Source: a virus. Taken from it: a stretch of DNA of 30,972 nt. Location of the stretch: the IMG/VR virus record IMGVR_UViG_3300005393_000308; one strand, 5' to 3'. Position 1 is the stretch's first letter. Every line of letters begins with the position of its first letter. The translations under genes and the position numbers were made by a program. Positions 1 to 28,534 of this stretch are shown here, piece after piece. The notes under the pieces were generated by a model. It did no database searches. It had not been told where the DNA came from and saw only the letters and a list, made by a program, of their open reading frames with translations.

Positions 1-61
1 CGGACTCAAAATCCGCCGGGGCTCACACCCCGTAGGGGTTCGACTCCCCTCTTCGGCACCA
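1..61 (+). tRNA. tRNA-Leu(CAA), 5'-truncated by the window edge
   Basis: Anticodon arm CGGA-CTCAAAA-TCCG, long variable arm (CGGGG...CCCCG), T arm AGGGG-TTCGACT-CCCCT, ends GGCACCA at 61. Confidence 0.93.
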
Positions 62-121: not shown

Positions 122-2512
122 TTATTGATGCTTTTTATTCATTAACTGAATAAACTTTGTCACCAGCTGCGGATCAAATTGAGTACCAGCACACCTTTGC
201 AGCTCATGTACAGCCTCCTCATGGGTCATGGCTTTGTGGTAAGGTCTGTCGCTGGTCATGGCGTCATAGGCATCCACAATTGCCAGCATGCGGCACTCCA
301 GAGGTATTTCTTCACCCTTGAGCCCAAGCGGGTACCCCTCGCCGTTCCACCATTCATGGTGTTTAAGAATCCAATCGGCAATTGGAGCAAGATCCGGCGC
401 GAGGACAGCAATACGATGTCCGATTATGCAGTGCCGCTGCATTTCGGCAAACTCCTCACTTGTAAGAGGACCTGGTTTAAAAAGTATGCTGTCCGGTACT
501 CCTACTTTACCGATATCGTGAAACTGCGCCAGGAGGCGGAGGTCGGTTAAACTGCGTTCGGGCAGGCCCATAGCCACAGCTAAATCTACCACCAGGGCCT
601 GCAGCCGGTCCGTGTGCTCCTCAGTATGAAAATCCCGTGCTTCCAGTATCTTCATGAGGGTTTGCACCACAACGCTGCGGGTGCTTTGGGTACGGTGAAG
701 TTTTTCCCGGTACATCTTGTTGTCAGCTTCTTTAAAGAGCTCACTTACATTTATCGGCGCTCCGCTTCTTGCAGCAAACCCTACAGATATGTTCAGCGGC
801 AGCTCCGGCTCTGTCGCGTTATATCTCGCTACTGCATCCCTTATCCTTTTACAGGCGCTCTCAATAGTTTTTTCTTCACTGTTCGGGAGTATCACGGCAA
901 ACTCGTCACCCCCGATTCTGGCTACCACATCATTTTCACGAAAGGAACTTTTGATAATATTGGCAGCGGTCAAAAGCAACGTATCCCCGACCTCATGCCC
1001 AAGCGTGTCGTTGATAAATTTAAGTCCGTCCACATCACAAACGATAATACCGGCCGAAGTATAGCGCCCATCCTCCACCCGCCGCATTTCCTCCTCAAAA
1101 TAAGCACGGTTATGGAGGCCGGTGAGCGGATCGTGCAGGCTCAAATACTTCAGGCGATCCTCCATTTGCTTTTGTTTAGTCACATCCCGGATAATCTCAA
1201 TGGCACCTACGATATTCCCTTCTTTATCAAAAAGAGGGGAGGCCGTTCCCCAGATATAGGCTCCCTTTCCGCCATACATTTTGGGCAAAAAAGATGCACA
1301 GTGCAAAACATCGCCTTTTCTCTCAAAAATATCGTAGAACAGGCTCGGCTGGCTCTCTGGATCAAAAATAAAATCAGCTAAAACCGGACGCGGGTTTTCG
1401 TAAAAGGGTATCGAGTACTCATAATTACCCTTACCCAGCATTTCTTCTTTTGGTACCCCGGTCATCTCCTCCATCGCCCGGTTCCAGGCAATAACCTTCC
1501 TCTCGCGGTTAATTACAAAGGTAGCGTCGGGAAGAAATTCAATGATATCCTGGAGCCGCTGGTTGGCTAACGCCAGGTCTTTCTCTTTTTCCTCCAATTT
1601 TTTATACTGCTGCCTGAGCTCCTCCTCTGTAGCCATCAGCTCTTCATTAATAGCAGTCAACTCCTCATTGGCTGCTATCAATTCCTCATTGTTCATCCGC
1701 AGCTCTTCTTTAATCCGCTCACGCTCGGTTATGTCTATCCCCGTGGCTATAACATACTCCACCAAGCCGTTATCACCAGGAAGTATGGTAGCTGACCAGG
1801 CAATCAAACGTCTGTCCCCGACTTTTGTTAAACAATAACTGTCAAATAGCTTTGGATACAGGCCGTTACAAAGCTCCTCGAAAGCAGCCATCACCATTTC
1901 CACCTGTTCCGGTATTAAGAATAACTCCCAGAAGCACTTATCTTTTACCTCGTTGAACAGGTAGCCTGTGATTTGTTCGCAGGTCTGGTTGAAGCGGACT
2001 ATCCTTCCTGCTGGGTCCAAAACTACTACCAGGCAACCGGCCACATCAAGGACCGCTAAAATGAAATCACGCTCTTTTTTGAGCTCACGCTCGGCCTGCT
2101 TTCTCCCTGTAATATCAGTAATCAGCCCCACTGAGCCGGCAAAACGCCCATCCCTGTCACAAAAGGGGGCGGCAGACACTATTGCCCATAAGTCTGTGCC
2201 GTCTTTCCGGCGGTACTTACAATCGTATTGCTCCGCAATACCCTGCTTGCGGCGCTTCATGACGGTCCTTACAGCATCATGGTACCTTTCATCAATAAAA
2301 TCATATATTGCCCGGCCGATCATCTCCTCTACGAAATAGCCCAGCATCTCGGCCATCTTTTCATTAACAAAGGCTACCCTACCGTCAGCGTCAATTACCA
2401 GGATACCTTCGTTGGCTGTTTTAACTACCCAACGGTACCACTCTTCATGTTCCGCCAGCGCCATCTCCACCGGTTTTATTTCAATTTTATTAAGTTGCAT
2501 AATTTGCAACAT
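122..2512 (-). CDS. PAS x3 / GGDEF / HD-GYP c-di-GMP turnover protein (host gene)
   Basis: Three PAS/PAC units ending DITGRK, DITERE and DVTKQK; a coiled coil; HDPLTGLHNR; intact GGDEF preceded by an RxxD I-site (REND); HDIGK and HHEWWNGEGYP HD-GYP motifs. Confidence 0.95.
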   Translation of the reverse strand: MLQIMQLNKIEIKPVEMALAEHEEWYRWVVKTANEGILVIDADGRVAFVNEKMAEMLGYFVEEMIGRAIYDFIDERYHDAVRTVMKRRKQGIAEQYDCKYRRKDGTDLWAIVSAAPFCDRDGRFAGSVGLITDITGRKQAERELKKERDFILAVLDVAGCLVVVLDPAGRIVRFNQTCEQITGYLFNEVKDKCFWELFLIPEQVEMVMAAFEELCNGLYPKLFDSYCLTKVGDRRLIAWSATILPGDNGLVEYVIATGIDITERERIKEELRMNNEELIAANEELTAINEELMATEEELRQQYKKLEEKEKDLALANQRLQDIIEFLPDATFVINRERKVIAWNRAMEEMTGVPKEEMLGKGNYEYSIPFYENPRPVLADFIFDPESQPSLFYDIFERKGDVLHCASFLPKMYGGKGAYIWGTASPLFDKEGNIVGAIEIIRDVTKQKQMEDRLKYLSLHDPLTGLHNRAYFEEEMRRVEDGRYTSAGIIVCDVDGLKFINDTLGHEVGDTLLLTAANIIKSSFRENDVVARIGGDEFAVILPNSEEKTIESACKRIRDAVARYNATEPELPLNISVGFAARSGAPINVSELFKEADNKMYREKLHRTQSTRSVVVQTLMKILEARDFHTEEHTDRLQALVVDLAVAMGLPERSLTDLRLLAQFHDIGKVGVPDSILFKPGPLTSEEFAEMQRHCIIGHRIAVLAPDLAPIADWILKHHEWWNGEGYPLGLKGEEIPLECRMLAIVDAYDAMTSDRPYHKAMTHEEAVHELQRCAGTQFDPQLVTKFIQLMNKKHQ

Positions 2513-2760
2513 TTCCTTTCATACCTTCCTGACAATGGAACAAATCTTTAACCTGGTTTCTGAAACCCAGGCAAATATGACCGCCTGAATTCCTCTCCCG
2601 CCAGTCAAGTGGGAGATTAGGGTCACAGAGTTCAATCTCCGAATCTGTGACTCGCCCCAAAAACCTTTTCCTTTCTTGAAATAATTTATTTATAAATAAT
2701 TTATTTACCTAATATCGATTTGCCAAATTAACAGGTAAATGATAGGGTATTGGTATTTTT

Positions 2761-2819
2761 TTCGACAATGTTTACCGATTACCTGCTACAATTATCGACA
2801 ATTATCGAGAAATTCGACT
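2761..2819 (-). promoter_or_regulatory. Cluster of Spo0A-box-like heptamers upstream of the c-di-GMP gene
   Basis: Perfect TGTCGAA on the minus strand (2761-2767) plus near matches at 2794-2800, 2804-2810 and 2813-2819. Confidence 0.4.
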
Positions 2820-2870
2820 TTAAATATCAGTAAATTCTGACTTTAATTTATATTTTTCTCCTAATAATTA

Positions 2871-2907
2871 AGTTGTCCAGAAAGCACTGCCAGCTAACTG
2901 GACAACT
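2871..2907 (-). terminator. Inverted repeat downstream of the tRNA-Gly 3' end; likely the original tRNA terminator
   Basis: AGTTGTCCAG (2871-2880) / CTGGACAACT (2898-2907), a perfect 10-bp inverted repeat about 60 bp past the CCA end. Confidence 0.4.
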
Positions 2908-2967
2908 GAACTCCCACTTGTTTTTCATACCCCAAAACAAAATCCATATAAATCAATTAGACAAATC

Positions 2968-3017
2968 TGGAGCGGGTGATGGGAATCGAACCCACGTACC
3001 CGGCTTGGAAGGCCGGG
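2968..3017 (-). repeat. Prophage att site: displaced 3' half of tRNA-Gly(TCC)
   Basis: Minus strand reads CCCGGC-CTTCCAA-GCCGGG TAC GTGGG-TTCGATT-CCCAT CACCCGC TCCA. Anticodon arm, T arm and 3' acceptor strand are present, but there is no 5' GCGGGTG strand or D arm upstream. It sits exactly at the host/phage gene boundary. Confidence 0.88.
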
Positions 3018-3178
3018 TTAACCTGTTTTAACTCCTGAGATGTTGGTGCTACTAGACTACCCTAGTTTCACCACCCTGCCAGCGTAACCGGCTAGGACTA
3101 CCTGCTATATGTCTCACAAATAGCCAGGCCGGTGGCCTTAGTTGATCTTATCATCTTATTATTCGTGGGTCAAGATCT

Positions 3179-3454
3179 TTATATACCGACCTGTACCTCG
3201 TTACTCTGCAGCGACCTGTTTCCTTTCTTGTCCACACTGGTCATCACGAAGTAGTACTTTCCGGCATGCATGCTCGCCAGAGTGTACTGGCTGATGTTCC
3301 GCTCATTGATTATATCAGCTATGAAGTATGGCCCTCTCTTCCTGTAACTTATCCATATCTCATACTTCACGACATCCGCAGACCGCGACAGTCTCCACTT
3401 CAGCCTGATATTGCTGGTGTTAGTTATATACCACCCCTGTGCTGCGTGTATCAA
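3179..3454 (-). CDS. Small fibronectin type III-like protein
   Basis: IRLKW...VVKYEI...YTL..M..GKYYFVMTSVDKKGNRS..SN follows the FN3 pattern; abuts the upstream gene. Confidence 0.65.
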   Translation of the reverse strand: MIHAAQGWYITNTSNIRLKWRLSRSADVVKYEIWISYRKRGPYFIADIINERNISQYTLASMHAGKYYFVMTSVDKKGNRSLQSNEVQVGI

Positions 3455-3676
3455 TTAAACCACCAGCCTGCATATGATGTAATCCCCTTCTTCAACCGGG
3501 AAGTCTATATGCAGCTTTCTTCCTTCAACTGTATAGTCACTTTTGCTTACAAGTATCCCGTTGCGAAAGACCAGTATCGAGCCATACCATGGATTGAAGT
3601 CAAGGTCGAAGTCAACCTGGTCTGTTGATGTGATTGCGAATGTATTCTCCTGTTCTGTTTCTGTCCACAGAGCCAT
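3455..3676 (-). CDS. Small beta-rich phage protein
   Basis: RBS AAGGAAGGG; VFRNG...DY...IDFP..GDYI motif that recurs in the structural genes of this window. Confidence 0.65.
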   Translation of the reverse strand: MALWTETEQENTFAITSTDQVDFDLDFNPWYGSILVFRNGILVSKSDYTVEGRKLHIDFPVEEGDYIICRLVV

Positions 3677-3698
3677 GATAAATCCCTTCCTTAATTAT

Positions 3699-3880
3699 GT
3701 GACGTACCCTACGCCTAAAGGCATAGGGCTTCTCGCTTCATCCTATCTAGCGGTAGTCCACGAAGGCTCCGTCCGAGCCTAGTAATAGTGGTACCTAAGC
3801 TGCTTGCATAGCTAATGCTCTCTGAAGGATGTTCCTGGCAGCGTTAACGTCGCGGTCTATAGAGAGCCCACAGTATGGGC
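3699..3880 (-). ncRNA. Putative TnpB omegaRNA (right-end RNA) scaffold; 5' limit approximate
   Basis: Overlaps the tnpB 3' end and runs through hairpin AGGCTC-GGACG-GAGCCT and the right-end hairpin to TCAC. The predicted guide is the flank ATAATTAAGGAAGGGA. Confidence 0.55.
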
Positions 3881-3983
3881 AACAGTGCCAGCGGTCATTA
3901 AGGGTTTTGGGCACAACGTTACCACAAGCAGAGCACTCCTGGGATGTGTTGCGTGGGTCAACTGCGACTACTTGCCTATCAGC
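3795..3983 (-). pseudogene. tnpB: TnpB C-terminal remnant (Zn ribbon and RuvC-III), absent from the ORF track
   Basis: Translates ADRQVVAVDPRNTSQECSACGNVVPKTLNDRWHCCPYCGLSIDRDVNAARNILQRALAMQAA*. No upstream ATG in frame, and out of frame with the LAGLIDADG ORF. Confidence 0.9.
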
Positions 3984-4011
3984 TAGGCAGAAACTGAATG
4001 ATTTGTAAACG

Positions 4012-4492
4012 TTAGTTACGTAATGCCTGGCGAAACGCTTCTCGCTTCTGTATATCCTCGATAGTTAGTTTCTTGTTTGACCTTTGTGTACTCATATATC
4101 TTTGAAACTCGATTGCGATCTGCGCTTGTTGTTTTTTTAACACGCAGAAATGGTTGAATTGCGCTCAGGAATTCCATTGCTTGCATCGACATAATTCGCC
4201 AAGCCCAGCAAGGGCGTCGTCCTTTCCTGTTGCGGTAATGCGAGTTATCAGAAATGTGTCCTCCAAATGTAGTGTGAAGCCATTCTATTAATTCTCTGTC
4301 TGTGTTGGTAATGCTAACTTGTAGCCAATAATGTGGGCTCTCCGTGCCCTTTTTAGGCTTACTGACACAAATAGTAATTGAGCCTTCGCCATCGAATAAA
4401 CCTACAACATAAGCTAAGGTTAAGGAAACGACTTCAAGCCTCTTCTCTTGCTCCGTATTCGGGTAGAGCTTGTACTTGTACAGCTTGAGCAT
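4012..4492 (-). CDS. TnpB N-terminus::LAGLIDADG endonuclease fusion with an apparent 1-nt frameshift at an A7 run (4132-4138)
   Basis: RBS then ATG at 4492: MLKLYKYKLYPNTEQEKRLE (TnpB start) runs in frame into LAYVVGLFDGEGSI...QVSITNTDRELIEWLHTTFGG...IQPFLRVKK. Removing one A gives a typical tail, QQAQIAIEFQ...KREAFRQALRN* (stop 4012-4014). Confidence 0.82.
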
Positions 4493-4625
4493 CCTTCTCC
4501 GCCTCCCTCCTGAGTACATCAATGACATACTGGTGCATGGACCTGCGTCTAGCGAAGGCAGCACGCCGTAGCAACTCGTGCAAGTCTGGAGTTAGGCGGA
4601 GAGGAAACTTAACCGTCTTCTCCAT
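4434..4625 (-). CDS. Arc-like ribbon-helix-helix DNA-binding protein inside the IS element
   Basis: KFPLRLTPDLHELLRRAA...RSMHQYVIDVL is an Arc/RHH pattern; RBS GGAGGTG. Confidence 0.8.
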   Translation of the reverse strand: MEKTVKFPLRLTPDLHELLRRAAFARRRSMHQYVIDVLRREAEKDAQAVQVQALPEYGAREEA

Positions 4626-4778
4626 AGGTACACCTCCATTTGGCTATTATGGACCTCCATTACTATATAGTACCTATAGAGAGCATTGTTACTTCGCTCG
4701 TACTGATGACTTTAGTACCGCCGCTTTCATCCCATCCCCTAAAGGAGATGGGTTTTCCCGCGGCTGTGATATAAGTAC

Positions 4779-6635
4779 TTACACGCCCGCTATTGTATAT
4801 GCCATGTATATACCAGAGGAGTGCAGGTCTTTTTTCTCACAGGCGGTATTGATTATTATACTGTCATCTTTATAGGAAATCAGGTCCAGTTCCTCCAGAG
4901 TTGCCAGCGCTGGCTGGAGCACTTCAGCGTAGTTTCCAGCGATCCTGTTTAGCCTGTTGGTGTAGATTGCCTCGTAGATGATGCCTATCAGATTTCTGCT
5001 GAGACTTATATGCTGTGTGACCGCCTGAACTATTCCCTTGGGTTCCAACCTGTCATTGTAGTTATTAATGTCAAGTGTAAGGGCAATGTCCCAGGGTTTC
5101 CTGACTGAACTATATGTATCACCGCCGCCAAACCAGATGAACCATGTGTTGTCCAGTCTGAACCGGATGTGCTCGCCCGTATTTGTCTTGCTGAGGCACG
5201 CTGGGTTTGCCCGCCGGATTAGGAACACCGGCTGGGGGTTACTGCAACCGTACGGCTCCAATATCTTAAGCTGAGCAATCTCGTCCATATTGCCAGCGTC
5301 CTTAGCTGTGATGACAGCGTCAATATTTACAGCCGGCGGCTTTGGCAACGGAAGTATCTTATTTAGCACAGCCCGCAAAGTATCTACTTTGTCCGGGTAT
5401 ACATTTACTCCTACGGCCTGCTTGTGGCCGCCGTAGGAGGCCAGGCATTCTTCCGTTTGCCTCAGCGCGTCTATCAGGTCATACCCGCCAGGCGCCCGGC
5501 CTGATCCCTTCCATGCATCACCATGTTCACCAAGCACTATAGCCGGCCGCCCGTAGTGGCTGCACAGGTGACCCGCCACCAGACCGGCTATACCATGAGG
5601 TATATTCTCGTCAGAGACGACTATTATCCTGTCGTCCTTTGTGACACTTAGTCTTTCCAGTATTGATGTCTTTATCTCCGCCACCAGCCGCCGGCGTTCC
5701 TGGTTGAGTTCTACCAGCCGTTCTGCCAGCCTGTATGTTTCACGTACGTCATCGGCAATGAACATTTCAAGGGCAACGTCTGGACTGCCAAGGCGGCCCG
5801 GGGCGTTAATACATGGAGCTACTATATATCCTATCGACTGTGCGTCCGGCGTGTCCAGTTCCAGCACATCCCGCAGGGCTGTTATACCCGGCAGGCTGAC
5901 CAGAGGCCACAACTCCAGTCCCTGTTTGACTATATACCTGTTTTCATGCTCCAGGGGCATTATATCGGCCACTGTGGCTACCGCAGCAAGCACAGTCATT
6001 TCAGGGGGTATCCGCATCTTGAGTTCCTGTCCTATTTCTTCTATAAGCTTGTAGACCAGTCCCGCCGCACAGTAACCGGTAAACTTCATCTGTCCGCTAT
6101 AGTACTCGGGATTGACAAAGCATGCAACCGGCGGCCGGCCGTACATCGGCTCGTGGTGGTCCACGACTATGACTTCAATACCCCTGGCCCGGGCCTCCGC
6201 ACATGCTTCAATATCATTGGTGCCGCTGTCCACAGCTATGATCAGCGTGGTACCTGCCTCCGTTGCCTTTTCCACGGCATACCTGTTAAACCCGTATCCA
6301 ATAGAGCGGTCGGGTAGGTACCAGTCGACGACACCTCCCAGCCGTCTCAGCCACAACACCAGCATCGCTGTAGCGCAGATCCCGTCTGCATCGTAGTCGC
6401 CTGATACAAGTATCTTGCCATCTCTTGTATGCCTTATCACCAGGCGGCTCGCGTCCTTAAGCTCGGGAATGGCTGACGGGATCGTCCTCTTGTCCGCTGA
6501 TATATAGTCGTAGGCATCCTTGCTGGACCTGAATCTGCCGGCCAGCACCTCGCTGACCAATTTGCCGACGCCATCTGCCGTTAGCTCCGCAGGGTTAAAG
6601 TTCCGCTTGTTCAGCCGCCAGATCGGGTTAGACAT
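4779..6635 (-). CDS. recJ: RecJ-like ssDNA exonuclease (DHH/DHHA1)
   Basis: GDYDADG, VDSG, VDHH, TVADIMPLEHENR, INAPGRL, GSGR, GGH and LEPYG.SNPQP motifs. Confidence 0.92.
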   Translation of the reverse strand: MSNPIWRLNKRNFNPAELTADGVGKLVSEVLAGRFRSSKDAYDYISADKRTIPSAIPELKDASRLVIRHTRDGKILVSGDYDADGICATAMLVLWLRRLGGVVDWYLPDRSIGYGFNRYAVEKATEAGTTLIIAVDSGTNDIEACAEARARGIEVIVVDHHEPMYGRPPVACFVNPEYYSGQMKFTGYCAAGLVYKLIEEIGQELKMRIPPEMTVLAAVATVADIMPLEHENRYIVKQGLELWPLVSLPGITALRDVLELDTPDAQSIGYIVAPCINAPGRLGSPDVALEMFIADDVRETYRLAERLVELNQERRRLVAEIKTSILERLSVTKDDRIIVVSDENIPHGIAGLVAGHLCSHYGRPAIVLGEHGDAWKGSGRAPGGYDLIDALRQTEECLASYGGHKQAVGVNVYPDKVDTLRAVLNKILPLPKPPAVNIDAVITAKDAGNMDEIAQLKILEPYGCSNPQPVFLIRRANPACLSKTNTGEHIRFRLDNTWFIWFGGGDTYSSVRKPWDIALTLDINNYNDRLEPKGIVQAVTQHISLSRNLIGIIYEAIYTNRLNRIAGNYAEVLQPALATLEELDLISYKDDSIIINTACEKKDLHSSGIYMAYTIAGV

Positions 6636-6636
6636 G

Positions 6637-6960
6637 TTATCCCCCCAGGATAGTTCCTTTGAACTGCTGTTCGCCGGGTATCTCGTGAATTACTTTCAAT
6701 ATGACATTGGTTGACTGGGGTAATCTGGTTCCCCTGTCGGCCAGGTAAGCCGTCCTTACAGTCGGAGATGTCTGCATCACGTACCACGGTTCCGGATCTT
6801 CGCCCACATATAGCCTGAACTCCGCCGAACACGTGCCGGTGCCACAGAATCCTATGAGATACCTGATTCCGTCTGCTGTCCAGCGGCAGATCTCCTGTTC
6901 TACATTCGGCGGGATCGATATGCCGGTATTATTTCTTGCCAGCATGCGGTTCTCCACCAC
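6637..6960 (-). CDS. Hypothetical phage protein
   Basis: 107-aa ORF filling the gap between the sigma factor and recJ; translationally coupled layout. Confidence 0.6.
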   Translation of the reverse strand: MVENRMLARNNTGISIPPNVEQEICRWTADGIRYLIGFCGTGTCSAEFRLYVGEDPEPWYVMQTSPTVRTAYLADRGTRLPQSTNVILKVIHEIPGEQQFKGTILGG

Positions 6961-7744
6961 CCGCTAGCTTTAGTTTTGCTTCGTTCCGTATCCTGCGCAC
7001 CTTTGTGGTGCTGAATCCAAATTCTTCGCCTATTTCTCTATCCTTCCATCCCTTATCATAGTACAATGCAAGTATTCTCCTTTCAAGAGGCGACAGGTTA
7101 TGGAATATCTCTGAACAGGTGTCGCCGTTAATCCAGTTTTCGTCCAGCGGCGTATCCCCTTCATCTATCAGCGCGAGGAGCGGTTCATCTACTCGAATCT
7201 GCTCTACCAGGTTCGCGTCGTCTTCAAACTCGTCCGGTTCCGTTACGTTGTAGTTGCGGGCGATCATTGAAACCGGGTCATTTGTCCAGGCTGACAGTCT
7301 CTTGTAAGCTCTGTAATGAAAAGCTTTGCTGACGTAAACATGAAAAAAGCACCCGTTGTCGTTGTGGTACTTCTTGGCCATAGCCAGAAGCTCGCTGACC
7401 AGCTCCGACCGGATGTCTTCCTCGTCATAGGGTGAGAACTGTTTTGTAATCATGTTAACCATTATGAAGATTAGCTGTTTTGCCTCATTGTCCTTATAGT
7501 AGGCGCTTATTACCTTGTATCTGTCCAGCCGATTCCTCATGAACAGGGTTATAAAGCGCCTGAGGCATATGTTCCTGATATCTATTACGCCGTTTTTGAT
7601 CAACTGCACGAAGTTTTCTATAAAACCGCTGAATGCCTGGATAAGCTTCAGGGCGGCCTCGTTATTGCCGCCCTGGTAAGCTTTTACCAACCTGTCCACT
7701 TCCTGATAGTCATATCTCTTTCGTTGTGTTCTCTTTAATGTCAT
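6929..7744 (-). CDS. Phage-encoded sigma-70 family sigma factor
   Basis: Region 2-like LVKAYQGGNNEAALKLI...EEDIRSEL...AKKY...FHVYV; region 4 HTH LSPLERRILALYY..GWKDREIGEEFGFSTTKVRRIRNEA. Confidence 0.8.
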   Translation of the reverse strand: MTLKRTQRKRYDYQEVDRLVKAYQGGNNEAALKLIQAFSGFIENFVQLIKNGVIDIRNICLRRFITLFMRNRLDRYKVISAYYKDNEAKQLIFIMVNMITKQFSPYDEEDIRSELVSELLAMAKKYHNDNGCFFHVYVSKAFHYRAYKRLSAWTNDPVSMIARNYNVTEPDEFEDDANLVEQIRVDEPLLALIDEGDTPLDENWINGDTCSEIFHNLSPLERRILALYYDKGWKDREIGEEFGFSTTKVRRIRNEAKLKLAGGGEPHAGKK

Positions 7745-8294
7745 GTTGCTTCATCCTTTTGTGGGTCGTTGTGCTTTTGGACCTGTGGTTTTTCCTTCCT
7801 TTGCCATCTATCTGGTTGTCACCCTGCATATACATATGCAGGATAGCGATTGCATCGGTAATGTCGTCCGCATGGGGTTTTTCTTTTATGCAGTCAAAAT
7901 CCAGCTCGCCACTGTAGAGCTCCACCACAGCCCGGGCCACATCTTCTTTGTTCGCATTGCCACGGCCGGTTACCGCCCTCTTCACTTTGGCTGGCGGTAT
8001 TATAGCTACCTTCACTCCATACCTGCTGGCCGTCAGCATTACGGCGCCATGCACAAGGCTTAATTGGTAGGTGGTTTTGGGATTACAGGCTGTGTAACAC
8101 CCCTCCATAGCTATCTCATCTATCTTATGCTTTTTGATCAGTTCGCCTAGCCACTCGCTTATAGCCAGTAACTTGTCCTGCAATGGTCTATTTTTGTCCA
8201 GAGTAAATATTCCTGTTATCCATTTTTCATCGTCACAAATTGCGTAGCCACTGTGATTGAGTGCCGCATCAATGGCGCAAACAGTTTTCAGCAT
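7710..8294 (-). CDS. ruvC: RuvC-like Holliday junction resolvase (start moved to 8294)
   Basis: RBS AGGAGG before MLKTVCAIDAALNHSGYA; IAMEG, VKRAVTGRGNANKEDV and DDITDAIA catalytic motifs. Confidence 0.88.
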   Translation of the reverse strand: MLKTVCAIDAALNHSGYAICDDEKWITGIFTLDKNRPLQDKLLAISEWLGELIKKHKIDEIAMEGCYTACNPKTTYQLSLVHGAVMLTASRYGVKVAIIPPAKVKRAVTGRGNANKEDVARAVVELYSGELDFDCIKEKPHADDITDAIAILHMYMQGDNQIDGKGRKNHRSKSTTTHKRMKQHDIKENTTKEI

Positions 8295-8572
8295 TTGCCC
8301 TCCTGTTGGCCTATAATTATACCAGTGCTTATTCGCACCAATTGTCATACCTGTCACTGTTTCTTATGCCGGCGTAGAAGCCATCTACGAACGCCCTCAT
8401 AAGGTCTATTGTCCGCTTGTCGGTCGGCATGTTGGGAAATCTTTTACTCAGTTCTTCTCTTAATATATAGTTGCCCCAAAACTCATTAGTGGCTTTTATG
8501 ATGAATTCACAGGTAATTGCGGCTGGATGCCCCCGATTTCAATCGGGGGAGGAAAGCCGCCTAACCTCCCTT

Positions 8573-8770
8573 CTATGCAACGTATTTGTACCTCCAAGAG
8601 GCAAAACATACAAACTTGCAATCATCTGGTTTAGCCTGTTGGGTTAGTCTCTTGCCAGTATTGATGTCATGCAGACTTATTCTGTTGTTTATGTGCCCGC
8701 CAACATAGCACAGGCCGTATTTTGGGTGCTTAACGTAACTGCCACGTTTGAAGCCAAGTGACCTTGTACC
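8573..8770 (-). pseudogene. isrB: IsrB-like C-terminal remnant, absent from the ORF track
   Basis: Translates GTRSLGFKRGSYVKHPKYGLCYVGGHINNRISLHDINTGKRLTQQAKPDDCKFVCFASWRYKYVA*, which I recognise as the C-terminus of RRXRR/IsrB-type proteins. Confidence 0.75.
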
Positions 8771-8776
8771 ACATGA

Positions 8777-9442
8777 TCAGTAAGTAATTATCTTGTCTCT
8801 TTTGTACCACCTATTGCATTTACTACACAAAACCGAAAGATTTTCTAATGCAAAAAGTTGAACTATTTCTTGTTCGTTTTTAGCTGTTGACAGTGGAACT
8901 TTATGATCTATATCGAAATTATTCCAATCAATTGCTGAACCACATATTGGACACTTGTAATTATAGCGTTCCATCTCTCGTTTAATATGAGCTACAAACT
9001 CTTTTTTGGTATATGGTAAACAATTCCAACTTTTGCCTTTTAGATACTGTCGTAAAGCTACACGCAATCTATTAATCATTTTACCTTCTGGAGTTTGCCG
9101 CCATCTCCTACGATACTCTCTGTTCTTTTTACACCTCTTCAAAATTCTTTGTTTATCAGTTAATAGTGGTAAATATCTAGGACTTAGTCCCATAGATTTA
9201 CATCTCTCATTATGAGCCAACAGAATTTGTTTCGCTTTTCCTGGATTACGATTTCTATTTATAACAATTTTATTCTTGCACGTCTTACATGGTTTTCCTT
9301 CGCTAACAGAACGCTTCTGTACTTCATAAACCTTCTTACAAATTGGGCATAAACAAACTACCAACTTATGGCTGCCATTGGATAGTTCATTAGGATAATA
9401 ACCAAAACGTCTTTTTGTTTCCTCATTCAAGACAATTCCCAT
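8777..9442 (-). CDS. HNH endonuclease with an N-terminal zinc-ribbon
   Basis: N-terminal CPIC...CKTC; C-terminal CPICG...FDIDHKVPLS...ENLSVLCSKCN; visibly AT-richer than the flanks; RBS AAGGGAGG. Confidence 0.88.
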   Translation of the reverse strand: MGIVLNEETKRRFGYYPNELSNGSHKLVVCLCPICKKVYEVQKRSVSEGKPCKTCKNKIVINRNRNPGKAKQILLAHNERCKSMGLSPRYLPLLTDKQRILKRCKKNREYRRRWRQTPEGKMINRLRVALRQYLKGKSWNCLPYTKKEFVAHIKREMERYNYKCPICGSAIDWNNFDIDHKVPLSTAKNEQEIVQLFALENLSVLCSKCNRWYKRDKIITY

Positions 9443-9444
9443 TT

Positions 9445-9507
9445 ATCAACCTCCCTTACGTTGCTACCGCCATCGCAAGCCCCCGAATTTATTCGGGGGT
9501 AGTTGAC
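9445..9507 (-). ncRNA. Retained 5' domain of an IsrB/IscB omegaRNA (truncated)
   Basis: GUCAACUACC pairs with GGAGGUUGAU and encloses hairpins CCCCCGAA/UUCGGGGG and CUUGCG/CGUAAG; same architecture as the 5' end of the 21822-22003 element. Confidence 0.65.
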
Positions 9508-9735
9508 TGTCTGCCGGATACGGTTCTTCTTTGAGTTGCTCTTCCATTTCTCTTTTCTTTCTTCTGAGAAACTCCTTCAGGCTTTCCCTCGGATAAGAAG
9601 GTTCTTTGTGGGAATAGCTGCCTGCCGGATCTGTCTCTTCCTGCAAGCACTTTACAAAGTGTTTGATAAACTCATCTTCTCTTTTCTCAAAGAACTCCTC
9701 TAAGCTCTCTGCCATCGAATGATTCGCCTCCACTC

Positions 9736-10368
9736 TTAATCTGACTCGCCGGTCATCGCCAGGTACTGGTTCCATTCGTCGTCTGAATATGCCTCAGACT
9801 TGAAGGGAGGCGGTTCCTTTTTAAACTGCTTGTAATGTTTGGAGAGGTGGGAATACGCTGCTTTCTTATCAGGGGGCGAGGTTTTCATAAGGAAACTCAT
9901 TGCAGCTTTTACTCCTCCCCAGACTACGTAAAGCGTACCATTCTTGACATCGTGGTGAGGATATTTATATGACCCGAAGTTTTCTGGATCTCCATCAACG
10001 ATCAGGAAGGCCTTTTTATACTTTCCCCAGTTAATCTTGTCCTTTGAACCGGAGCCATCACTGCTTGCCCATTTGGCAATTCTCGCTCTTGCGGCGGCCG
10101 CGTCCCAGCTACTACTGTCATCGGTTGGCCCGCTGCTATAGGGGACTACGCCTTCAGTTGCGTTTCCTTCAGGCTCCACATCCCCGGCGGCAAGTTCGAT
10201 TTCCCTGACCATCTGCTGGATTTCTTCTCCTGTCGGTATCCTACCCTCGTCTGCAAACTCCTCCATGGCCTTCCTGTATTCCTCGGAGATTACCTTAATA
10301 GTGCCATCGTCGTGTTCCTCGATTACTGTCTGTCCAGTTTTGGGGTTAACGATTCTTATAAATCCCAT
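9736..10368 (-). CDS. Phage hypothetical protein with a WDAAAA...KY.KAF...SYK.PHH domain
   Basis: Strong RBS AAGGAGG; acidic N-terminus followed by a domain resembling accessory domains of phage prohead proteases (recognition from memory). Confidence 0.7.
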   Translation of the reverse strand: MGFIRIVNPKTGQTVIEEHDDGTIKVISEEYRKAMEEFADEGRIPTGEEIQQMVREIELAAGDVEPEGNATEGVVPYSSGPTDDSSSWDAAAARARIAKWASSDGSGSKDKINWGKYKKAFLIVDGDPENFGSYKYPHHDVKNGTLYVVWGGVKAAMSFLMKTSPPDKKAAYSHLSKHYKQFKKEPPPFKSEAYSDDEWNQYLAMTGESD

Positions 10369-10386
10369 TTGTAGTCCTCCTTTTGG

Positions 10387-11175
10387 CTAATTAGCTAGTA
10401 ACCATTTCATCTGTGCGCACAGGAAGTAGTATGTGCATCTATCGCAGTCCCGGCCGGCCGCCGGGTAGTAAACCCTGCGCCCTATGCTGTCGATTACGCT
10501 GTCAACCACTACTTCTGTTACCTTCAGGTCTTTGCTTCCTATATTGATTGATTCAAAGCGCCCCTGTTCAATGTAATATACGCCTACCGCGTTGAGCGGC
10601 TTGTTCAGCAGTTTCCGGCAGGCGGCGCTGGCCGCTATCACCGAGAGGTCAGCGCTGACCAGTTTGCGCTGTTGTTTGTTCTTGTCCTGCTGCAGCATGA
10701 CCAGTTCCAGTTGGCGGCCTCGTTTGACCACTGTGTCTATTACTCCAGTTACTGCCCCATGTTTCAGGTCTATTGTATATTTGCAGTTTATCAGCACCGG
10801 CTGGCCTCCATATTGTTTTAGCTGCTCCTGCATGGCAACGCACTGTTCGAGTCCCCGTTTGAGCGCGCCCGGGTCAAGCTTCTTTCTTACAGCAGAGAGA
10901 TGTTTAAACGTGGACTTTATAAGCCTGTTGTAGGCGTTCTTGACCTCGTGTTTATTCGGGTATGAACCTCCTTGTGCGCTGTACATAATAAAGTAAAACA
11001 CCCGCCTGATACAGGTATAGTGCAGGTTGTCGCTGTCTGTTTTCACACCTGCGGGCGTTTCATGTTTGTAGTGGTAATATAGTGGGCAATAGCAGTAATC
11101 TTTGATCGATTCTATATCATACGTTTTCTGCTCTGCGTTGCACACCATACGGTATTGCACTGCCCATCTGGCCAC
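10387..11175 (-). CDS. PD-(D/E)XK superfamily (Cas4/RecB/AddB-like) protein, possibly inactive
   Basis: N-terminal YCYCPLYYHY and C-terminal CDRCTYYFLC (Fe-S staple pattern), plus GVID. Start uncertain. Confidence 0.7.
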   Translation of the reverse strand: MARWAVQYRMVCNAEQKTYDIESIKDYCYCPLYYHYKHETPAGVKTDSDNLHYTCIRRVFYFIMYSAQGGSYPNKHEVKNAYNRLIKSTFKHLSAVRKKLDPGALKRGLEQCVAMQEQLKQYGGQPVLINCKYTIDLKHGAVTGVIDTVVKRGRQLELVMLQQDKNKQQRKLVSADLSVIAASAACRKLLNKPLNAVGVYYIEQGRFESINIGSKDLKVTEVVVDSVIDSIGRRVYYPAAGRDCDRCTYYFLCAQMKWLLAN

Positions 11176-11317
11176 CCGGCACAGATCGATCCAGTATGTC
11201 TTCTACTTTATTGCGCACACATTCCCAGTGAATGCTCCACTTTCTTTCGTATGCGGCTACCCGCGGGTCGCTTGAGTACTCCGTAATCTCCTGCTTACAC
11301 CAGATGCATTTCTGCAT
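11117..11317 (-). CDS. Small putative zinc-binding protein
   Basis: RBS AAGGAG; ATG overlaps the upstream stop (TAATG); CIWC...HWEC. Confidence 0.5.
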   Translation of the reverse strand: MQKCIWCKQEITEYSSDPRVAAYERKWSIHWECVRNKVEDILDRSVPGGQMGSAIPYGVQRRAENV

Positions 11318-11502
11318 TACTTCAACTCTCCTTCTGTTGCCTTGTTGGACTTCTGGTAGTTTGCCAGGGAAATGATTAGCTTGGGCTGGGGCTTGTTCTT
11401 CATAAGCCACCTCAGCCTGAACCAGTTTGTGCATTTGTAAACTCCGTACCAGGTGATTACCCTATGCCTTTTATCGCTGCAAATAAAGTCCAGCACTTTC
11501 AA
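11317..11502 (-). CDS. Small hypothetical protein
   Basis: GGAGG upstream of a TTG start; stop coupled to the next gene. Confidence 0.45.
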   Translation of the reverse strand: MKVLDFICSDKRHRVITWYGVYKCTNWFRLRWLMKNKPQPKLIISLANYQKSNKATEGELK

Positions 11503-12139
11503 TAAACCTCCAGATATCTTCCAGGTCGTAATCAGGATATATGCCGAGGAGTAGGGGCTTGTCTTGTTGGAGGATAATCAGCGTCGTTTCTTCCGGCTGT
11601 AGCAAGATATTGTATCTTACGGAAAACCTGTTGTCGTCGATTGAGTTTATATGTGTAATCAGCCCGGTCTGTATGCGGTATTGATCGTTCTCAGGCCACG
11701 ACACCGCTATTATTTCCTGTAATGGCCTAAGGGATTTAGCTGTCGCGTCATCACACAGCTCAAGATAGTAGTTGTATTTTACGTCGTCCAGTAACCGTAC
11801 AAGGCAAAGTTTCTTTGCTGCTTTCCTGTCGTCTACTGCTTCTACGCAGCCTGGTATCACCCTCTGTACCGGGATTAGCCCTTTCTCGCCCGGCTCATAC
11901 TGAAGCATTGTCACCGGTATTATGTTTCCCTGCTGCAGGTACCCCGTGCAGGTCAATACCCTGGTAATGTACTGTGTGCCGTCGGTTGACGGCCTTGAAT
12001 CTATCACGGCTCCCGTACTTCCGCCGGCCGTCACTACCGGATAGAGTACATATTTATAATAGTCATCTCCTACGCTCTCATCCTGGGGAAGGAGCATTAA
12101 TTTTGCCCTCCGCCCGCTTCCTGGTCCTCCTATAGTCAA
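11471..12139 (-). CDS. Hypothetical protein, possibly a catalytically dead trypsin-like fold
   Basis: RBS AAAGGAGG with TTG start; motif order resembles HtrA/trypsin-2 without the catalytic triad (see findings). Confidence 0.6.
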   Translation of the reverse strand: MTIGGPGSGRRAKLMLLPQDESVGDDYYKYVLYPVVTAGGSTGAVIDSRPSTDGTQYITRVLTCTGYLQQGNIIPVTMLQYEPGEKGLIPVQRVIPGCVEAVDDRKAAKKLCLVRLLDDVKYNYYLELCDDATAKSLRPLQEIIAVSWPENDQYRIQTGLITHINSIDDNRFSVRYNILLQPEETTLIILQQDKPLLLGIYPDYDLEDIWRFIESAGLYLQR

Positions 12140-12149
12140 TCCCTCCTTT

Positions 12150-12386
12150 CTACTTATGTCTGTGAGCTCTGTTGGAGAAGTTTTCCCGCCTGATCATCAA
12201 TTCCCTCTCTTTCTCTGTGTGGTGGCATACGGGAATCTCGCACCTCTGGCATTTGACGAACAGGTGAGAGGCTTTGACCATGCACCTGAAACATATAGGA
12301 CAGGGGGAGTAGCGCGGGCAGTTTACCCGGGCCGCTTCCTCTTCCCATATTCTTCTGTTTGATCTGATGGTGAATGTATCAGACAT
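12150..12386 (-). CDS. Small Cys/His-rich putative zinc-finger protein (start moved to 12386)
   Basis: AGAGGTG before MSDTFTIR; CPRYSPCPICFRC...CQRC...CHH. Confidence 0.6.
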   Translation of the reverse strand: MSDTFTIRSNRRIWEEEAARVNCPRYSPCPICFRCMVKASHLFVKCQRCEIPVCHHTEKERELMIRRENFSNRAHRHK

Positions 12387-12391
12387 TTGTA

Positions 12392-13336
12392 CTACACCTC
12401 TTGATCGCTGTCGCCGGCTTGTGCTTCTTGTTCCTTTTTTATTGGGGAACCTGCCTGACAATATTGCTCCAGTCGTTGCTGGATTGCCTTGTTATATGCA
12501 CTTGATCTTCCAGTATATGGCCCACTGACCATCCCTATCTTGTAAGTGATTGCCGTGTCTACGATTACTTTATCTGTGTCAGCGTCCATGTATAATGCCG
12601 GTTCACTACAGTTGGTCAGGTCAAAATACATTTCACACCCATATTCATTTGCACATTGGATTACAATGTCGCATTCATCTGGCCATACAGGGTATCTATA
12701 ATATAAGGGAACCCAGATTTTGATTGTGTTGTTCTCTATTGCTACTCTTTTAATTGACCCTGTGAGAGTGCTATAAACTACTTCGTCTTCGCTCAGCACT
12801 ATGACATGGATATCTGCTGATCCGTATGTTACGATGTATGCTTCGTTGTTTTCGTGGTGACCGTTCTCCATTAACTTATCTGCTACCTCATTAAACCTAT
12901 CAATAAGCGGCCACCTGTTGTATTTTTCATCATCACTACGTGGTTCGAGTTTTATCGGCCCGCTGATACCTTCCCGCCCGCCTGTAGTTTCATCACTCTT
13001 ATCTGGTAATGGTCTGATATATGCCAAGAGTGGGTCTTTTTGTGGAACTACCGTATAGCCGCATTTTTGGCCGAACTCAATTATATTTACCCATGGGAAC
13101 CCGTCTATTAGTGTGTAGTTGAGTAACCTCCCTTTTATTGCTAGCTTGAAACCATCCCATTCGAGGACTTCCCCAGTGATACGCGCCAGCTGGTGCGCAT
13201 GTGCCAGGTAAATCGCTATCTGGTCTTTTTCGTTGATTCTGATATATGGCTTGCTGATAGCCGCCATACCGACAACGTCGGCCAGCTTGTTGTCGATTTG
13301 AATGATTCTGATATATGGCTCGCTGATAATCGCCAT
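12392..13336 (-). CDS. Hypothetical protein with a duplicated N-terminal peptide and a possible copper-amine-oxidase-N-like domain
   Basis: RBS AGGAGG; QLARITGEVLEWDG and TLIDGFPWVNIIEFGQKCGYTV echo the Cu_amine_oxidN1 repeat pattern (weak). Confidence 0.65.
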   Translation of the reverse strand: MAIISEPYIRIIQIDNKLADVVGMAAISKPYIRINEKDQIAIYLAHAHQLARITGEVLEWDGFKLAIKGRLLNYTLIDGFPWVNIIEFGQKCGYTVVPQKDPLLAYIRPLPDKSDETTGGREGISGPIKLEPRSDDEKYNRWPLIDRFNEVADKLMENGHHENNEAYIVTYGSADIHVIVLSEDEVVYSTLTGSIKRVAIENNTIKIWVPLYYRYPVWPDECDIVIQCANEYGCEMYFDLTNCSEPALYMDADTDKVIVDTAITYKIGMVSGPYTGRSSAYNKAIQQRLEQYCQAGSPIKKEQEAQAGDSDQEV

Positions 13337-21813: not shown

Positions 21814-21821
21814 CTCTTTAT

Positions 21822-22003
21822 ATAGCGTCGGGAGCCCCGGCCTTCAGGCCGGGGAAGGAGACGCTATGAATTTTATACCCATACCCGTCGCTCCTCGCTC
21901 CCCGGTAACGTAGCCCCGTCAGACTTACACCTGGTGGCTGAGGCTGGTCACGGCCAGGCTTGCTTTCGCAAGCCCCCCGGGCTTTAGCCGCGGGGTCCGT
22001 GAC
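21822..22003 (-). mobile_element. 182-bp miniature IS200/IS605 element carrying the 5' part of an IscB-type omegaRNA
   Basis: GTCACGGACCCCGCGGC-TAAA-GCCCGGGGGGCTTGC-GAAA-GCAAGCCTGGCCGTGACCAGCCTCAGCC...GGCTACGTT at one end; ATAGCGTC...CCCCGGCC-TGAA-GGCCGGGG...GACGCTAT at the other, followed by ATAAA; no ORF. Confidence 0.85.
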
Positions 22004-25669: not shown

Positions 25670-25808
25670 TTGACATACTCCCATGAATAAATTCGCGGGA
25701 TTCTGGTTCATCGAAGGACGCCCGCCGAAGCGGGCCTTACTCCTTCTCCCGCAAGGGTTGATGCCCCAACCCTGAGAATATTTATAGCCGCATTGAGATC
25801 CCGATCAT
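25670..25808 (-). mobile_element. Orphan IS605 tnpB 3' end plus right end (omegaRNA-sized remnant)
   Basis: Translates HDRDLNAAINILRVGASTLAGEGVRPASAGVLR*, followed by GAATCCCGCGAA-TTTA-TTCATGGGAGTATGTCAA ending at 25670; no left end or upstream tnpB seen. Confidence 0.82.
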
Positions 25809-28534
25809 GAAGTAATTGTGCCCAGTATGAGGTGTTTCGGCGGCGCAAAACCTGTTTCTTCCGAGATCTCAACCGTATCAATAACTAGCCGCGCCGGTCG
25901 GTCTGGGTATCTCTCCTCGGCGTCCCAGTAGTCTACCAGTGCCAGGTTGCCCGATACCTTGTGTTTGTTGACCTTCTGCTTGACCAGTTCCTCGGACCAG
26001 TACGGCTTGGATTTGAGCCTTTCGGGTAGGAACACCTTTGCTGCTCCACTAGCCTGCCACGGTTCGCCGTCCCAGTACCCGATATCGAAGTAATGCCTGC
26101 TTTCAGGTTCAATCAAGGCAGCTTGCGGCAATAAGTCTTCTCTGATACCGCCGCCGCGACTCCTGGCATCGTACAGAACGGCATCTTCGGGTTTGCAGTC
26201 GGGAAATACCCCTACCCGCCCGAGGTACAGCCAGTCTTCGTTATCTATCTCCTCTTCGCTGTGGAAGATATAGTCCTGCCAGTTGTAGGCCTCCTCGATG
26301 TGCCATTCTTTATCGTAGTAATAGTAGTCGGCGTAGTAGTATTCCGGCATTTTACCGGCAGGGTCAGGAATGATGTCAGGGTTATGGATTATAATGACGT
26401 TCTGCTCTGTTTCAGACCATGTCCAGTATACCCTGCCGTGGCCGTACGGCACCTCCTCATTGTTGCTACGCCTGTAGACTTTGGTTTTCCTGTCTTTGGC
26501 GGGAGTGTTTTCTAACCGTACGTACCACAGTATCTGCTTTCTCTTTCTGCCTGTTTTGAAGGGAATAAGTCGCTCCTGGTATGTGTACCCTGTATTGCTC
26601 AGCTTGGCGCTTGGCCGTGCGTAAATGTGAAATTCCCGGCCTATGCAGCATGTTCTTTCGGCCGGGTTGAGGTTTAATTCCCTGTATTCGCCTGTATCTG
26701 TATAACCATGGTATTCTGCCCAGTCCACCCTGTATGTGTAGCTGGCTGTCACTGCGCTTTTCGACCCGGCCTGTGTGTTTATCTTGGCCAGCCCGCTGGT
26801 TAGGTCGTACCACTCTACTTCTGTGGGCTTGTCGTCAATGAAAACTGCCAGCCCGGCGGGTTGACCGTTTACTGTCATACCGGTTATAAGCGGACTGTGC
26901 CTAAACTTGATTAGGCCACCATCAAACACTCCTACGGATATGTTGTTTACGGTCTTAACTATAGGTTCTTCGGCCAGCTCGTAGAGCAGCGCAGTGTTTC
27001 CATCTACAATACGCACCATCCGGCCGCGTTTGACGCGTACGTACCACGGTGTACTTAGCTCCTGCTCGGGGACATCGATCTGCAGGGATACGTTTTTGGT
27101 CAGTTTTACTCCATACAGGTGTACGAAACAGCCAGGCCTGTACACTTCTCTAATTTTCGCCACTACCTGCCCTTCCTGTTTTACCCTGCTCCACTTTACC
27201 GCCAATTCCCCATTGGGCCCGAAACATTCTTGCCCTCCCACGTAAAGCTGGATATCAATACCCACCGGGCGGTTGGCAAGCTCAATCTCCAATACCGCAT
27301 CTTCAGGTATACCTGGGAAATCCTCGGGCCTTATGGTTATCTCCCTGCTGTCAAACCCATAACTGCCTTCGATATCATAGATACGCCATTTTACTGGCCT
27401 ATCATTTATAGTTACAGTAGCAACTACTCTTACGTCTCTTTTAATATCCTTGAATCCTAGGTTTGCCAGTGATTCCTTAGTATACTCAATATACCTCCAC
27501 TTTCTGCCCTTCTGTTGGACTATGGCCGGCGGCTGGCCAGTGTTGACCTCGGTATATGCGTAGGGAACGCTTTCACCATCCGGCCGGCAACTCACCTGCA
27601 CATACTTGTTGTTAGAGAGAACGCTATACCTTATGACTGTGTCCGGATCTGAAAGCACCTCCTTGCCGATGAGCGGCGCCATGATGTCGTTGACCTTTCT
27701 ATTGTCCAGTATCTTGCGGCCGTTGTTATATATAGATTCGTCTATATACGTAAGGCAGGCGGGGTTAAGGACTGTTTCCGCCTGCCATGGTGTTTGGTAG
27801 ACTATCTTCTCGCCATTACTCTTTGTTGCCTCTGCCACTATCGAGTAGCGGAATGCTACAGGATGCCTGGTGTCATGGATTATGCTGTCATTCACCGCAA
27901 TCCTGATGCTGCTCGGGGTGCCGGCTCTGCTGACTGTATATGTAAGACCCGCCAAACCCGGCACCTCGCTGGCCGATAGCATACCAACAGGTTGTGGGTA
28001 CAGCGCTTCTGTGTAATTTGGGATTACCCTTTTCCTTCCGCGCCTGTCGGTGATTTCTGCGGTATAACTGACTATATACTCGTCATCGTGCAGAAAGTTA
28101 GTGTACACATATACCCTAAACAGCTTGCCGTCATTCTGTATGTCAACCAGGTACTTGTTTTCCTGCGGCCATTCCCCGCCGCCGGCAAGCGATACTGTTA
28201 CGCCTGCCGGGTCGGGGTTGGGCGTGGGCAGATGGGAGACGTGGAGATAGAAAAGAGGCTTGTCTTCGCTGAACACATCCGTCACGTTTGCCCATATTGC
28301 CTCATGTTCTCTGTTCCACTGGTAATCGCACAGAATTCCAGCCGGGGAGGGAAACATCTCCACAATTTCTTCCGCTTCCTGGCTGTCGTCAAACATACTG
28401 TCACAGGTAACCACAGAACTTGAGGTTATATGAGGCAGCTTATAGTAGGCCAGCAGGATATCACCCGGCTCTTTCTTTTGTTTAATTGCCAACTCCAATG
28501 CTGGTATTGAGCTATGCGGTCTGGTAGCCTGCAT
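25805..28534 (-). CDS. Large putative virion structural protein
   Basis: 909-aa ORF with RBS GGAGG, within the structural cluster; no family recognised. Confidence 0.6.
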   Translation of the reverse strand: MQATRPHSSIPALELAIKQKKEPGDILLAYYKLPHITSSSVVTCDSMFDDSQEAEEIVEMFPSPAGILCDYQWNREHEAIWANVTDVFSEDKPLFYLHVSHLPTPNPDPAGVTVSLAGGGEWPQENKYLVDIQNDGKLFRVYVYTNFLHDDEYIVSYTAEITDRRGRKRVIPNYTEALYPQPVGMLSASEVPGLAGLTYTVSRAGTPSSIRIAVNDSIIHDTRHPVAFRYSIVAEATKSNGEKIVYQTPWQAETVLNPACLTYIDESIYNNGRKILDNRKVNDIMAPLIGKEVLSDPDTVIRYSVLSNNKYVQVSCRPDGESVPYAYTEVNTGQPPAIVQQKGRKWRYIEYTKESLANLGFKDIKRDVRVVATVTINDRPVKWRIYDIEGSYGFDSREITIRPEDFPGIPEDAVLEIELANRPVGIDIQLYVGGQECFGPNGELAVKWSRVKQEGQVVAKIREVYRPGCFVHLYGVKLTKNVSLQIDVPEQELSTPWYVRVKRGRMVRIVDGNTALLYELAEEPIVKTVNNISVGVFDGGLIKFRHSPLITGMTVNGQPAGLAVFIDDKPTEVEWYDLTSGLAKINTQAGSKSAVTASYTYRVDWAEYHGYTDTGEYRELNLNPAERTCCIGREFHIYARPSAKLSNTGYTYQERLIPFKTGRKRKQILWYVRLENTPAKDRKTKVYRRSNNEEVPYGHGRVYWTWSETEQNVIIIHNPDIIPDPAGKMPEYYYADYYYYDKEWHIEEAYNWQDYIFHSEEEIDNEDWLYLGRVGVFPDCKPEDAVLYDARSRGGGIREDLLPQAALIEPESRHYFDIGYWDGEPWQASGAAKVFLPERLKSKPYWSEELVKQKVNKHKVSGNLALVDYWDAEERYPDRPARLVIDTVEISEETGFAPPKHLILGTITS

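Follow-up and report, generated by a model that had tools for sequence, protein, structure and literature searches.

Free-standing homing endonucleases appear to invade tnpB and isrB, the nuclease genes of RNA-guided IS200/IS605 elements, and to spread by converting intact elements, a reading to which we give a probability of about 0.68. Two such invaded elements, E1 and E2, lie within the window, the whole 30,972-nt stretch of viral DNA that was analysed (Table 1). Comparison with related loci reveals a site-restricted insertion into tnpB, apparent graded erosion of that gene, young arms, enzymes that appear to be under selection, and intact element ends. In the window, E2 looks like the working copy and E1 like a decaying one.

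The window reads as a prophage. Its phage genes, on the minus strand, encode a RecJ-like protein, a primase, DnaB and a virion protein; near the window start a host-type gene (PAS-GGDEF-HD-GYP-type) follows a tRNA. Of that tRNA the 3' part is present, at the window start itself (1-58, plus strand), and the 3' part of a tRNA-Gly (2974-3030, minus strand) lies at the apparent prophage border and is the likely attachment site. E1 (1072 bp) and E2 (997 bp) are 3.74 kb apart, in keeping with the initial annotation, which had described two IS200/IS605 elements of about 1 kb, about 3.7 kb from each other, with hairpins at both ends. A third IS200/IS605 remnant of about 180 bases (21820-22003, minus strand) has the start of an omegaRNA (HEARO, 36.8 bits) and both end hairpins; it contains no ORF and sits between two phage genes. 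A fourth (25670-25812, minus strand) consists of the last ~35 tnpB codons and the right-end hairpin, with no left end seen, and spans the boundary between two successive structural genes, overlapping the last part of one and the beginning of the other. A long structural-type ORF that leaves the window begins, at 30700-30972 (minus strand), with tandem peptide repeats (KT.VYTKTESD..YPL). JGI contig L074 is identical to the window over 1714-13334 and probably represents the same assembly.

Table 1. Features of E1, E2 and the phage gene interrupted by E2 (window coordinates)
Feature	Positions	Strand	Remarks
E1, non-autonomous IS605-type element (Arc + tnpB shell) with LAGLIDADG cassette	3699..4770	-	intact family relative L215
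E1 left end	4731..4774	-	cleavage motif TTAT 4771-4774 (outside element), guide AAAA 4753-4756, hairpin 4731-4752
Arc-type ribbon-helix-helix gene, 63 aa	4434..4625	-	Pfam TacA1/HicB/RHH; 56% to Arc of L075
tnpB 5' stub, codons 1-20	4436..4495	-	PF12323 (HTH_OrfB_IS605); 74% to L215 TnpB residues 1-19
Single-motif I-CreI-like LAGLIDADG gene	3983..4435	-	Pfam LAGLIDADG_1 E 1.3e-5; start lost
tnpB 3' stub from residue 302 (zinc ribbon, RuvC-III), ~62 codons	3795..3983	-	PF07282 (Cas12f1-like_TNB) E 1.3e-18
E1 right end	3699..3732	-	guide GAAG, hairpin 3707-3728, terminal TCAC
E2, isrB/omegaRNA shell with HNH cassette, inserted adjoining GTGAA	8511..9507	-	second copy L070; intact parent L197
omegaRNA 5' stub (first stem only)	9450..9507	-	end hairpin 9480-9499; weak HEARO match E 0.039
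HNH endonuclease, 221 aa, N-terminal zinc finger	8777..9442	-	Pfam HNH E 1.3e-5
isrB 3' stub, intact IsrB residues 273-337	8573..8772	-	98.5% aa to L197 IsrB
E2 end on TnpA strand	8507..8549	+	TCAC 8507-8510 (outside), guide GATG, hairpin 8530-8549
Interrupted phage ORF, 5' part	9508..9775	-	exact excision of 8511-9507 leaves a single open frame
Interrupted phage ORF, 3' part, 59 codons	8329..8510	-	joined by same removal

Judged by sequence, the ends of both elements look TnpA-competent. Each end has a subterminal hairpin (four in all), and the guide and cleavage motifs fit one another at every end: AAAA/TTAT, GAAG/TCAC, GATG/TCAC and CAAG/TGAC. In IS608 the cleavage motif base-pairs with a guide located at the foot of the hairpin (PMC3201880), and the first two pairs were judged by that source. 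The fourth is read on the plus strand of the omegaRNA-stub end of E2, where the guide is CAAG and the terminal motif TGAC. Other features of the IS200/IS605 type are also found, namely insertion at a fixed motif with no target duplication and, for E2, scarless removal, and the two empty-site sequences given in the initial annotation are correct to the base. The ends of E2 are fixed independently, because excising 8511-9507 restores the phage ORF; a search for homologues of this ORF found none. No tnpA is present within the window.

In E1 the Arc gene overlaps the tnpB start, and the tnpB 5' stub is joined in frame to the LAGLIDADG gene. The RuvC nuclease gene is incomplete, with only TnpB residues 1-20 and 302-end kept. 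On the tnpB-omegaRNA side the 3' ~285 bases are retained, and the 3' stub is what we take to be the region where a TnpB omegaRNA is expected. E2 likewise has an incomplete RuvC nuclease gene, keeping only IsrB residues 273-337, and its omegaRNA is also incomplete (27.9 bits vs 108.9 bits in the parent). Since most of the omegaRNA and isrB residues 1-271 are lost, E2 can neither make nor guide IsrB. The identification of a TnpB stub in one element and an IsrB-like stub in the other is thus borne out (PF07282 in E1; 98.9% identity of the E2 isrB stub to an intact IsrB element). The idea that each keeps a single terminal stub applies to E2 but not to E1, which has two tnpB stubs (20 + ~62 codons) and an Arc-type gene. 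The interior genes are AT-richer, as had been noticed: GC is 41.9% in the LAGLIDADG gene vs 52.6-52.9% in its shell and 33.8% in the HNH gene vs 44.4%, and both endonuclease genes lie ~11 points below their stubs.

The homing-family nuclease domain and its catalytic residues are intact in the E2 HNH and in the LAGLIDADG relatives but damaged in E1. The E1 gene has an extra base within an A7 run (4132-4138) and a compensating loss near 4017 that leaves an early stop at 4016-4018, the family-type stop being at 3983-3985; its tail falls into two frames, which cover model positions 5-104 and 98-141. Its motif helix has Val vs Ala in 32/32 relatives. The two indels, unless they stem from misassembly, and the Val in place of an invariant Ala make it probable that the E1 enzyme is dead. 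Two indels, one of them in a homopolymer run, and a sole identical record (L074) that is probably the same assembly could also suggest that both chimeras are singletons produced by chance decay or misassembly. However, this is scarcely credible: an independent sample contains E2 again, with the same junction region, and the E1 architecture is found again in L075 and 14 other shells. The chimeras are therefore recurrent, as the initial annotation had supposed, and not singletons.

The E2 HNH retains the catalytic residues D179-H180...N201...N210. Its predicted structure (pLDDT 92) contains an HNH-type domain, and a Foldseek search with this model gave weak HNH-domain matches only (best E 1e-3). 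The gene has a ribosome-binding site at the omegaRNA-stub junction, which is not that of isrB and is different in L070. Consequently, the proposal that each endonuclease gene is wired to the element's own translation signals holds for the in-frame tnpB-start fusion of E1 but fails for E2. The HNH-containing OMEGA proteins IscB and IshB offer a comparison, since E2 too has an HNH domain between omegaRNA-type ends. Unlike those proteins, the E2 HNH has no PLMP or RuvC, and its omegaRNA is deleted. In addition, the E2 junction falls after RuvC-III (IsrB residue 272; H..D at 221), not at the position of the HNH in IscB. Membership in IscB/IshB was rejected: the HNH ORF has no match to IsrB, and Pfam shows only the zinc finger and HNH.

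The clearest evidence for invasion comes from the relatives of E1. About 54 proteins are 52-70% identical to its LAGLIDADG protein, and the family profile aligns with I-CreI (E about 1e-8) across the core, KxKQA helix included. Remains of tnpB are found at 13 of the 14 distinct LAGLIDADG loci scoring at least 140 bits; a survey of distant LAGLIDADG loci (n=166), which otherwise lack tnpB, flagged only a second lineage (L106/L108/L110), a partial clade member (L121) and three weak matches. The clade occupies 16 distinct tnpB shells, whose stubs are mostly 40-65% alike. Nevertheless, where a 3' stub is present (16 composites), tnpB picks up again at TnpB residue 300-302 (KAE/xAG, the slash marking the junction) in 15, and at residue 309 only in L095. 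The second lineage (L097, L106; ~40% identity) uses the same tnpB junction. The upstream part of tnpB is nearly all kept in L078, L080, L081, L090, L106 and L230, is ~28-46 codons long in L075, L085, L092, L093, L097 and L220 and 20 codons in E1, and is missing from L076, L094 and L095. In L090 and L106 almost the whole of tnpB is present, the insertion maps to KAE/xAG, and the cassette is the ORF plus <30 bases, ending in a stop codon. These near-complete tnpB relatives show the apparent order of events, insertion first and erosion of tnpB later. An intron, intein or IStron origin was rejected, given this stop-terminated cassette in L090/L106 and the lack of any intron family in Rfam searches.

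In L092 (180-900) the LAGLIDADG cassette is inverted within the tnpB shell at the same junction, and promoter-like TTGAC...TA(C/T)AT pairs immediately precede the LAGLIDADG start in L095 and L097. The cassette can therefore do without the element's signals. The in-frame fusion of E1 is a derived state. A promoter scan of E1 gave nothing convincing. Three further arrangements were seen. At L121 (2440-2800), which is L090's locus, a shortened LAGLIDADG is followed by an intact KAEEA junction, which points either to recombination between invaded and intact tnpB or to chimeric assembly. At L072 (1082-1756) LAGLIDADG continues in frame into the TnpB zinc ribbon as a 224-aa fusion. At L098 (2500-3450) there are tandem LAGLIDADG domains, with no IS ends seen. 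A pseudo-palindrome, RGC-N7-GCY, surrounds the tnpB junction; it was set aside as the LAGLIDADG target, its odd centre being unlike LAGLIDADG sites.

The histories of the enzymes and their shells also differ. L215, an intact Arc-tnpB element from a Chloroflexota MAG, matches the two arms of L075 at 95.2% and 98.7% identity. The endonuclease of L075 is nearest to that of L078 (79%), yet their stubs are only 56% alike. Across 14 composites, the distance between endonucleases shows no correlation with that between stubs (Mantel r 0.11, p 0.29); with stubs of 156 bases, this comparison has low power. For close pairs within the LAGLIDADG family, dN/dS is 0.13-0.26. A pattern search of GTDB did not find the clade, ~800 sampled genomes of two phyla holding intact Arc-tnpB relatives gave only distant matches, and pattern scans of viral contigs for the E1 stub plus right end gave no match. 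An identical composite at two sites was not seen among the contigs listed for P0046, where the 10 look like one locus (five compared, all identical), or for P0044, whose contigs have common neighbours.

E2 provides a second case in an unrelated family. A search for further copies at other loci, as had been suggested, found the whole composite end to end at 89.75% in another phage (L070, an independent sample), where it sits between an SMC-like gene and a helicase. L197, the intact parent, carries a complete omegaRNA together with an IsrB of 337 residues that matches DtIsrB (8DMB) with E 2.9e-45; an unlinked tnpA is present in its phage record. Between E2 and L070 the HNH genes differ at 82/666 bases (12.3%; dN/dS 0.15-0.26) vs 7/262 bases (2.7%) for the 3' arms (Fisher p 1.5e-6), and L197 is nearer to each arm (3 and 6 differences) than the two arms are to each other. 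Five of the stub differences are silent and 1 is a replacement, a pattern expected of changes that accumulated in functional isrB alleles. Since co-inherited arms should diverge at least as much as the HNH gene, the arms seem to have been taken recently from such alleles. In both families, then, the endonuclease genes appear to be older than the shell arms and under purifying selection.

HNH relatives at 40-49% occur in three other isrB shells (L200, L207, L209), with stubs 49-60% alike. The 3' junction of the HNH varies, falling at IsrB residues 265, ~270, 272-273 and 303, and no HNH within a near-complete isrB was found among the relatives; for these two reasons the HNH home site is less sure. 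Thus, recurrence at a conserved site in diverged shells, together with signs of lateral transfer, is looser for the HNH (IsrB 265-303) than for the LAGLIDADG (TnpB 300-302). The tree leaves the shell-resident HNHs unresolved as one clade, and direct scans of viral contigs with the E2 HNH gave nothing close. In L207 (80-860) the HNH-isrB composite is flanked by a pair of similar gene starts (WTELTD.QR..AI.RVF.GE), which may reflect a local duplication. In L199 (238-1098) an HNH relative is directly followed by a LAGLIDADG-like frame, and IS ends were not seen. E2-type ends also enclose an unrelated ~375-aa TnpB-like ORF in opposite orientation at several loci (L235, L238, L239, L240), followed by GTGA in L235, L238 and L239; one end family therefore carries IsrB, TnpB and HNH cargo.

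An enzyme could instead be passive cargo, entering each shell once by chance, having some other target such as a neighbouring phage gene, and riding on TnpA while ordinary recombination with intact elements refreshes the arms. The intact ends that fit the TnpA rule, the presence of E2 next to GTGAA at two unrelated phage loci, and the unrelated, oppositely oriented tnpB carried by the same end family would all agree with this. Many HNH relatives are free-standing phage genes (4 of the 7 distant ones checked are plain phage genes), L121 shows recombination of invaded with intact tnpB, and young arms could also arise by passive gene conversion. However, a junction fixed to one codon across such diverged stubs, used by the second lineage and by the inverted cassette as well, is hard to obtain without site-specific invasion. 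Passive carriage is consequently considered unlikely, though less so for the HNH.

The initial annotation favoured a functional swap, in which the element's protein-guided enzyme cuts its own empty donor site to promote retention. In its favour, both elements have lost the RNA-guided nuclease but not their ends, purifying selection acts on the undamaged E2 HNH, and in E1 the endonuclease, positioned behind Arc, continues from the tnpB start as a fusion. However, the three E2-family empty sites (window, L070, L197) have nothing in common except the adjoining GTGAA, and although TTAT precedes E1, L075 and L215, the flanks of the LAGLIDADG composites are unrelated to one another. It has been considered almost impossible for a protein-guided enzyme to follow a transposon to unrelated sites (PMC13565253 section 6.3). 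The swap is very improbable because one protein would have to recognise unrelated empty sites; moreover, near-complete tnpB relatives indicate insertion followed by erosion, not exchange, one cassette is inverted, and the E1 enzyme is damaged and probably inactive. The fallback offered at that time, invasion of IS shells by free-standing homing endonucleases, fits the data and can be sharpened to site-specific invasion inside tnpB and isrB.

By this site-specific invasion, each element would have begun as an ordinary RNA-guided IS200/IS605 element, and the home site of the invader would lie in its nuclease gene, at tnpB KAE/xAG for the LAGLIDADG and near the isrB GG.RR.YGGT codons for the HNH. 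The enzyme would cut or nick intact copies of tnpB or isrB, and recombinational repair from an invaded copy, whose retained end segments would act as homology arms, would convert an intact element into a short composite wherever that element sits. The retained 3' stub would then be both a homology arm and the far side of the insertion site; its omegaRNA may be a further reason for its retention in E1, an explanation inapplicable to E2. As the ends remain intact, the composite is probably still mobile when TnpA is provided in trans. The fullest form of the proposal, that two unrelated homing families are hyperparasites that cut OMEGA nuclease genes, convert the elements and still travel on TnpA, is one on which we would place even odds.

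Free-standing homing endonucleases, and homing into an insertion sequence, are already known. The closest parallels are the seg and mob enzymes of T4-like phages, which carry out intronless homing (PMC2988022): the endonuclease genes of both composites likewise lie in phage DNA with no intron or intein, and their spread is presumed to occur by break repair and co-conversion of flanks. Unlike seg and mob, the inferred home site lies within the nuclease gene of another selfish element, which is destroyed, and the cassette is found inside intact transposon ends. The group II intron RmInt1 homes into ISRm2011-2 (PMC1802570) and so also targets an insertion sequence, but it is a splicing retroelement, whereas the cargo of E1 and E2 consists of bare endonuclease cassettes. 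Unlike I-CreI and I-MsoI, the LAGLIDADG family of E1 is bacterial and not intron-encoded, and the window copy is frameshifted just before the KxKQA helix ends. As to the shells, E1 resembles Arc-tnpB IS605 elements (bioRxiv 10.64898/2026.09.24.754181; Meers et al., bioRxiv 10.1101/2023.03.14.532601) in its ends, its Arc gene and the start and tail of tnpB and, like most of them, contains no tnpA. It differs in having the LAGLIDADG gene in place of ~280 tnpB codons, RuvC-I and -II among them. L197 resembles DtIsrB-omegaRNA (8DMB; PMC9581776) in having a full HEARO-type RNA, and its GTGA flank fits the IsrB TAM, NTGA (PMC9581776), as does the GTGAA that follows E2 and L070. A literature search, with many subscription papers outside its coverage, found no report of homing endonucleases within tnpB or isrB.

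These composites give no support for a new class of protein-guided transposon. They do supply new enzymes of bacterial origin (LAGLIDADG and HNH) for which a site can be predicted, and invaded and intact alleles are both at hand (L075 with L215; E2 and L070 with L197), the predicted target being one short conserved stretch. An HNH landing in isrB also bears on how IscB may have gained its HNH, a link that is speculative because the site here differs. TnpB, IscB and IsrB elements are thought to persist through re-homing by their RNA-guided nucleases. If the proposed invasion is true, enzymes that cut and seize the genes for these nucleases would naturally limit how far such elements spread and would provide one route to short non-autonomous shells. 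The invasion would then represent a gene drive guided by protein whose targets are themselves gene drives, guided by RNA, IsrB elements included.
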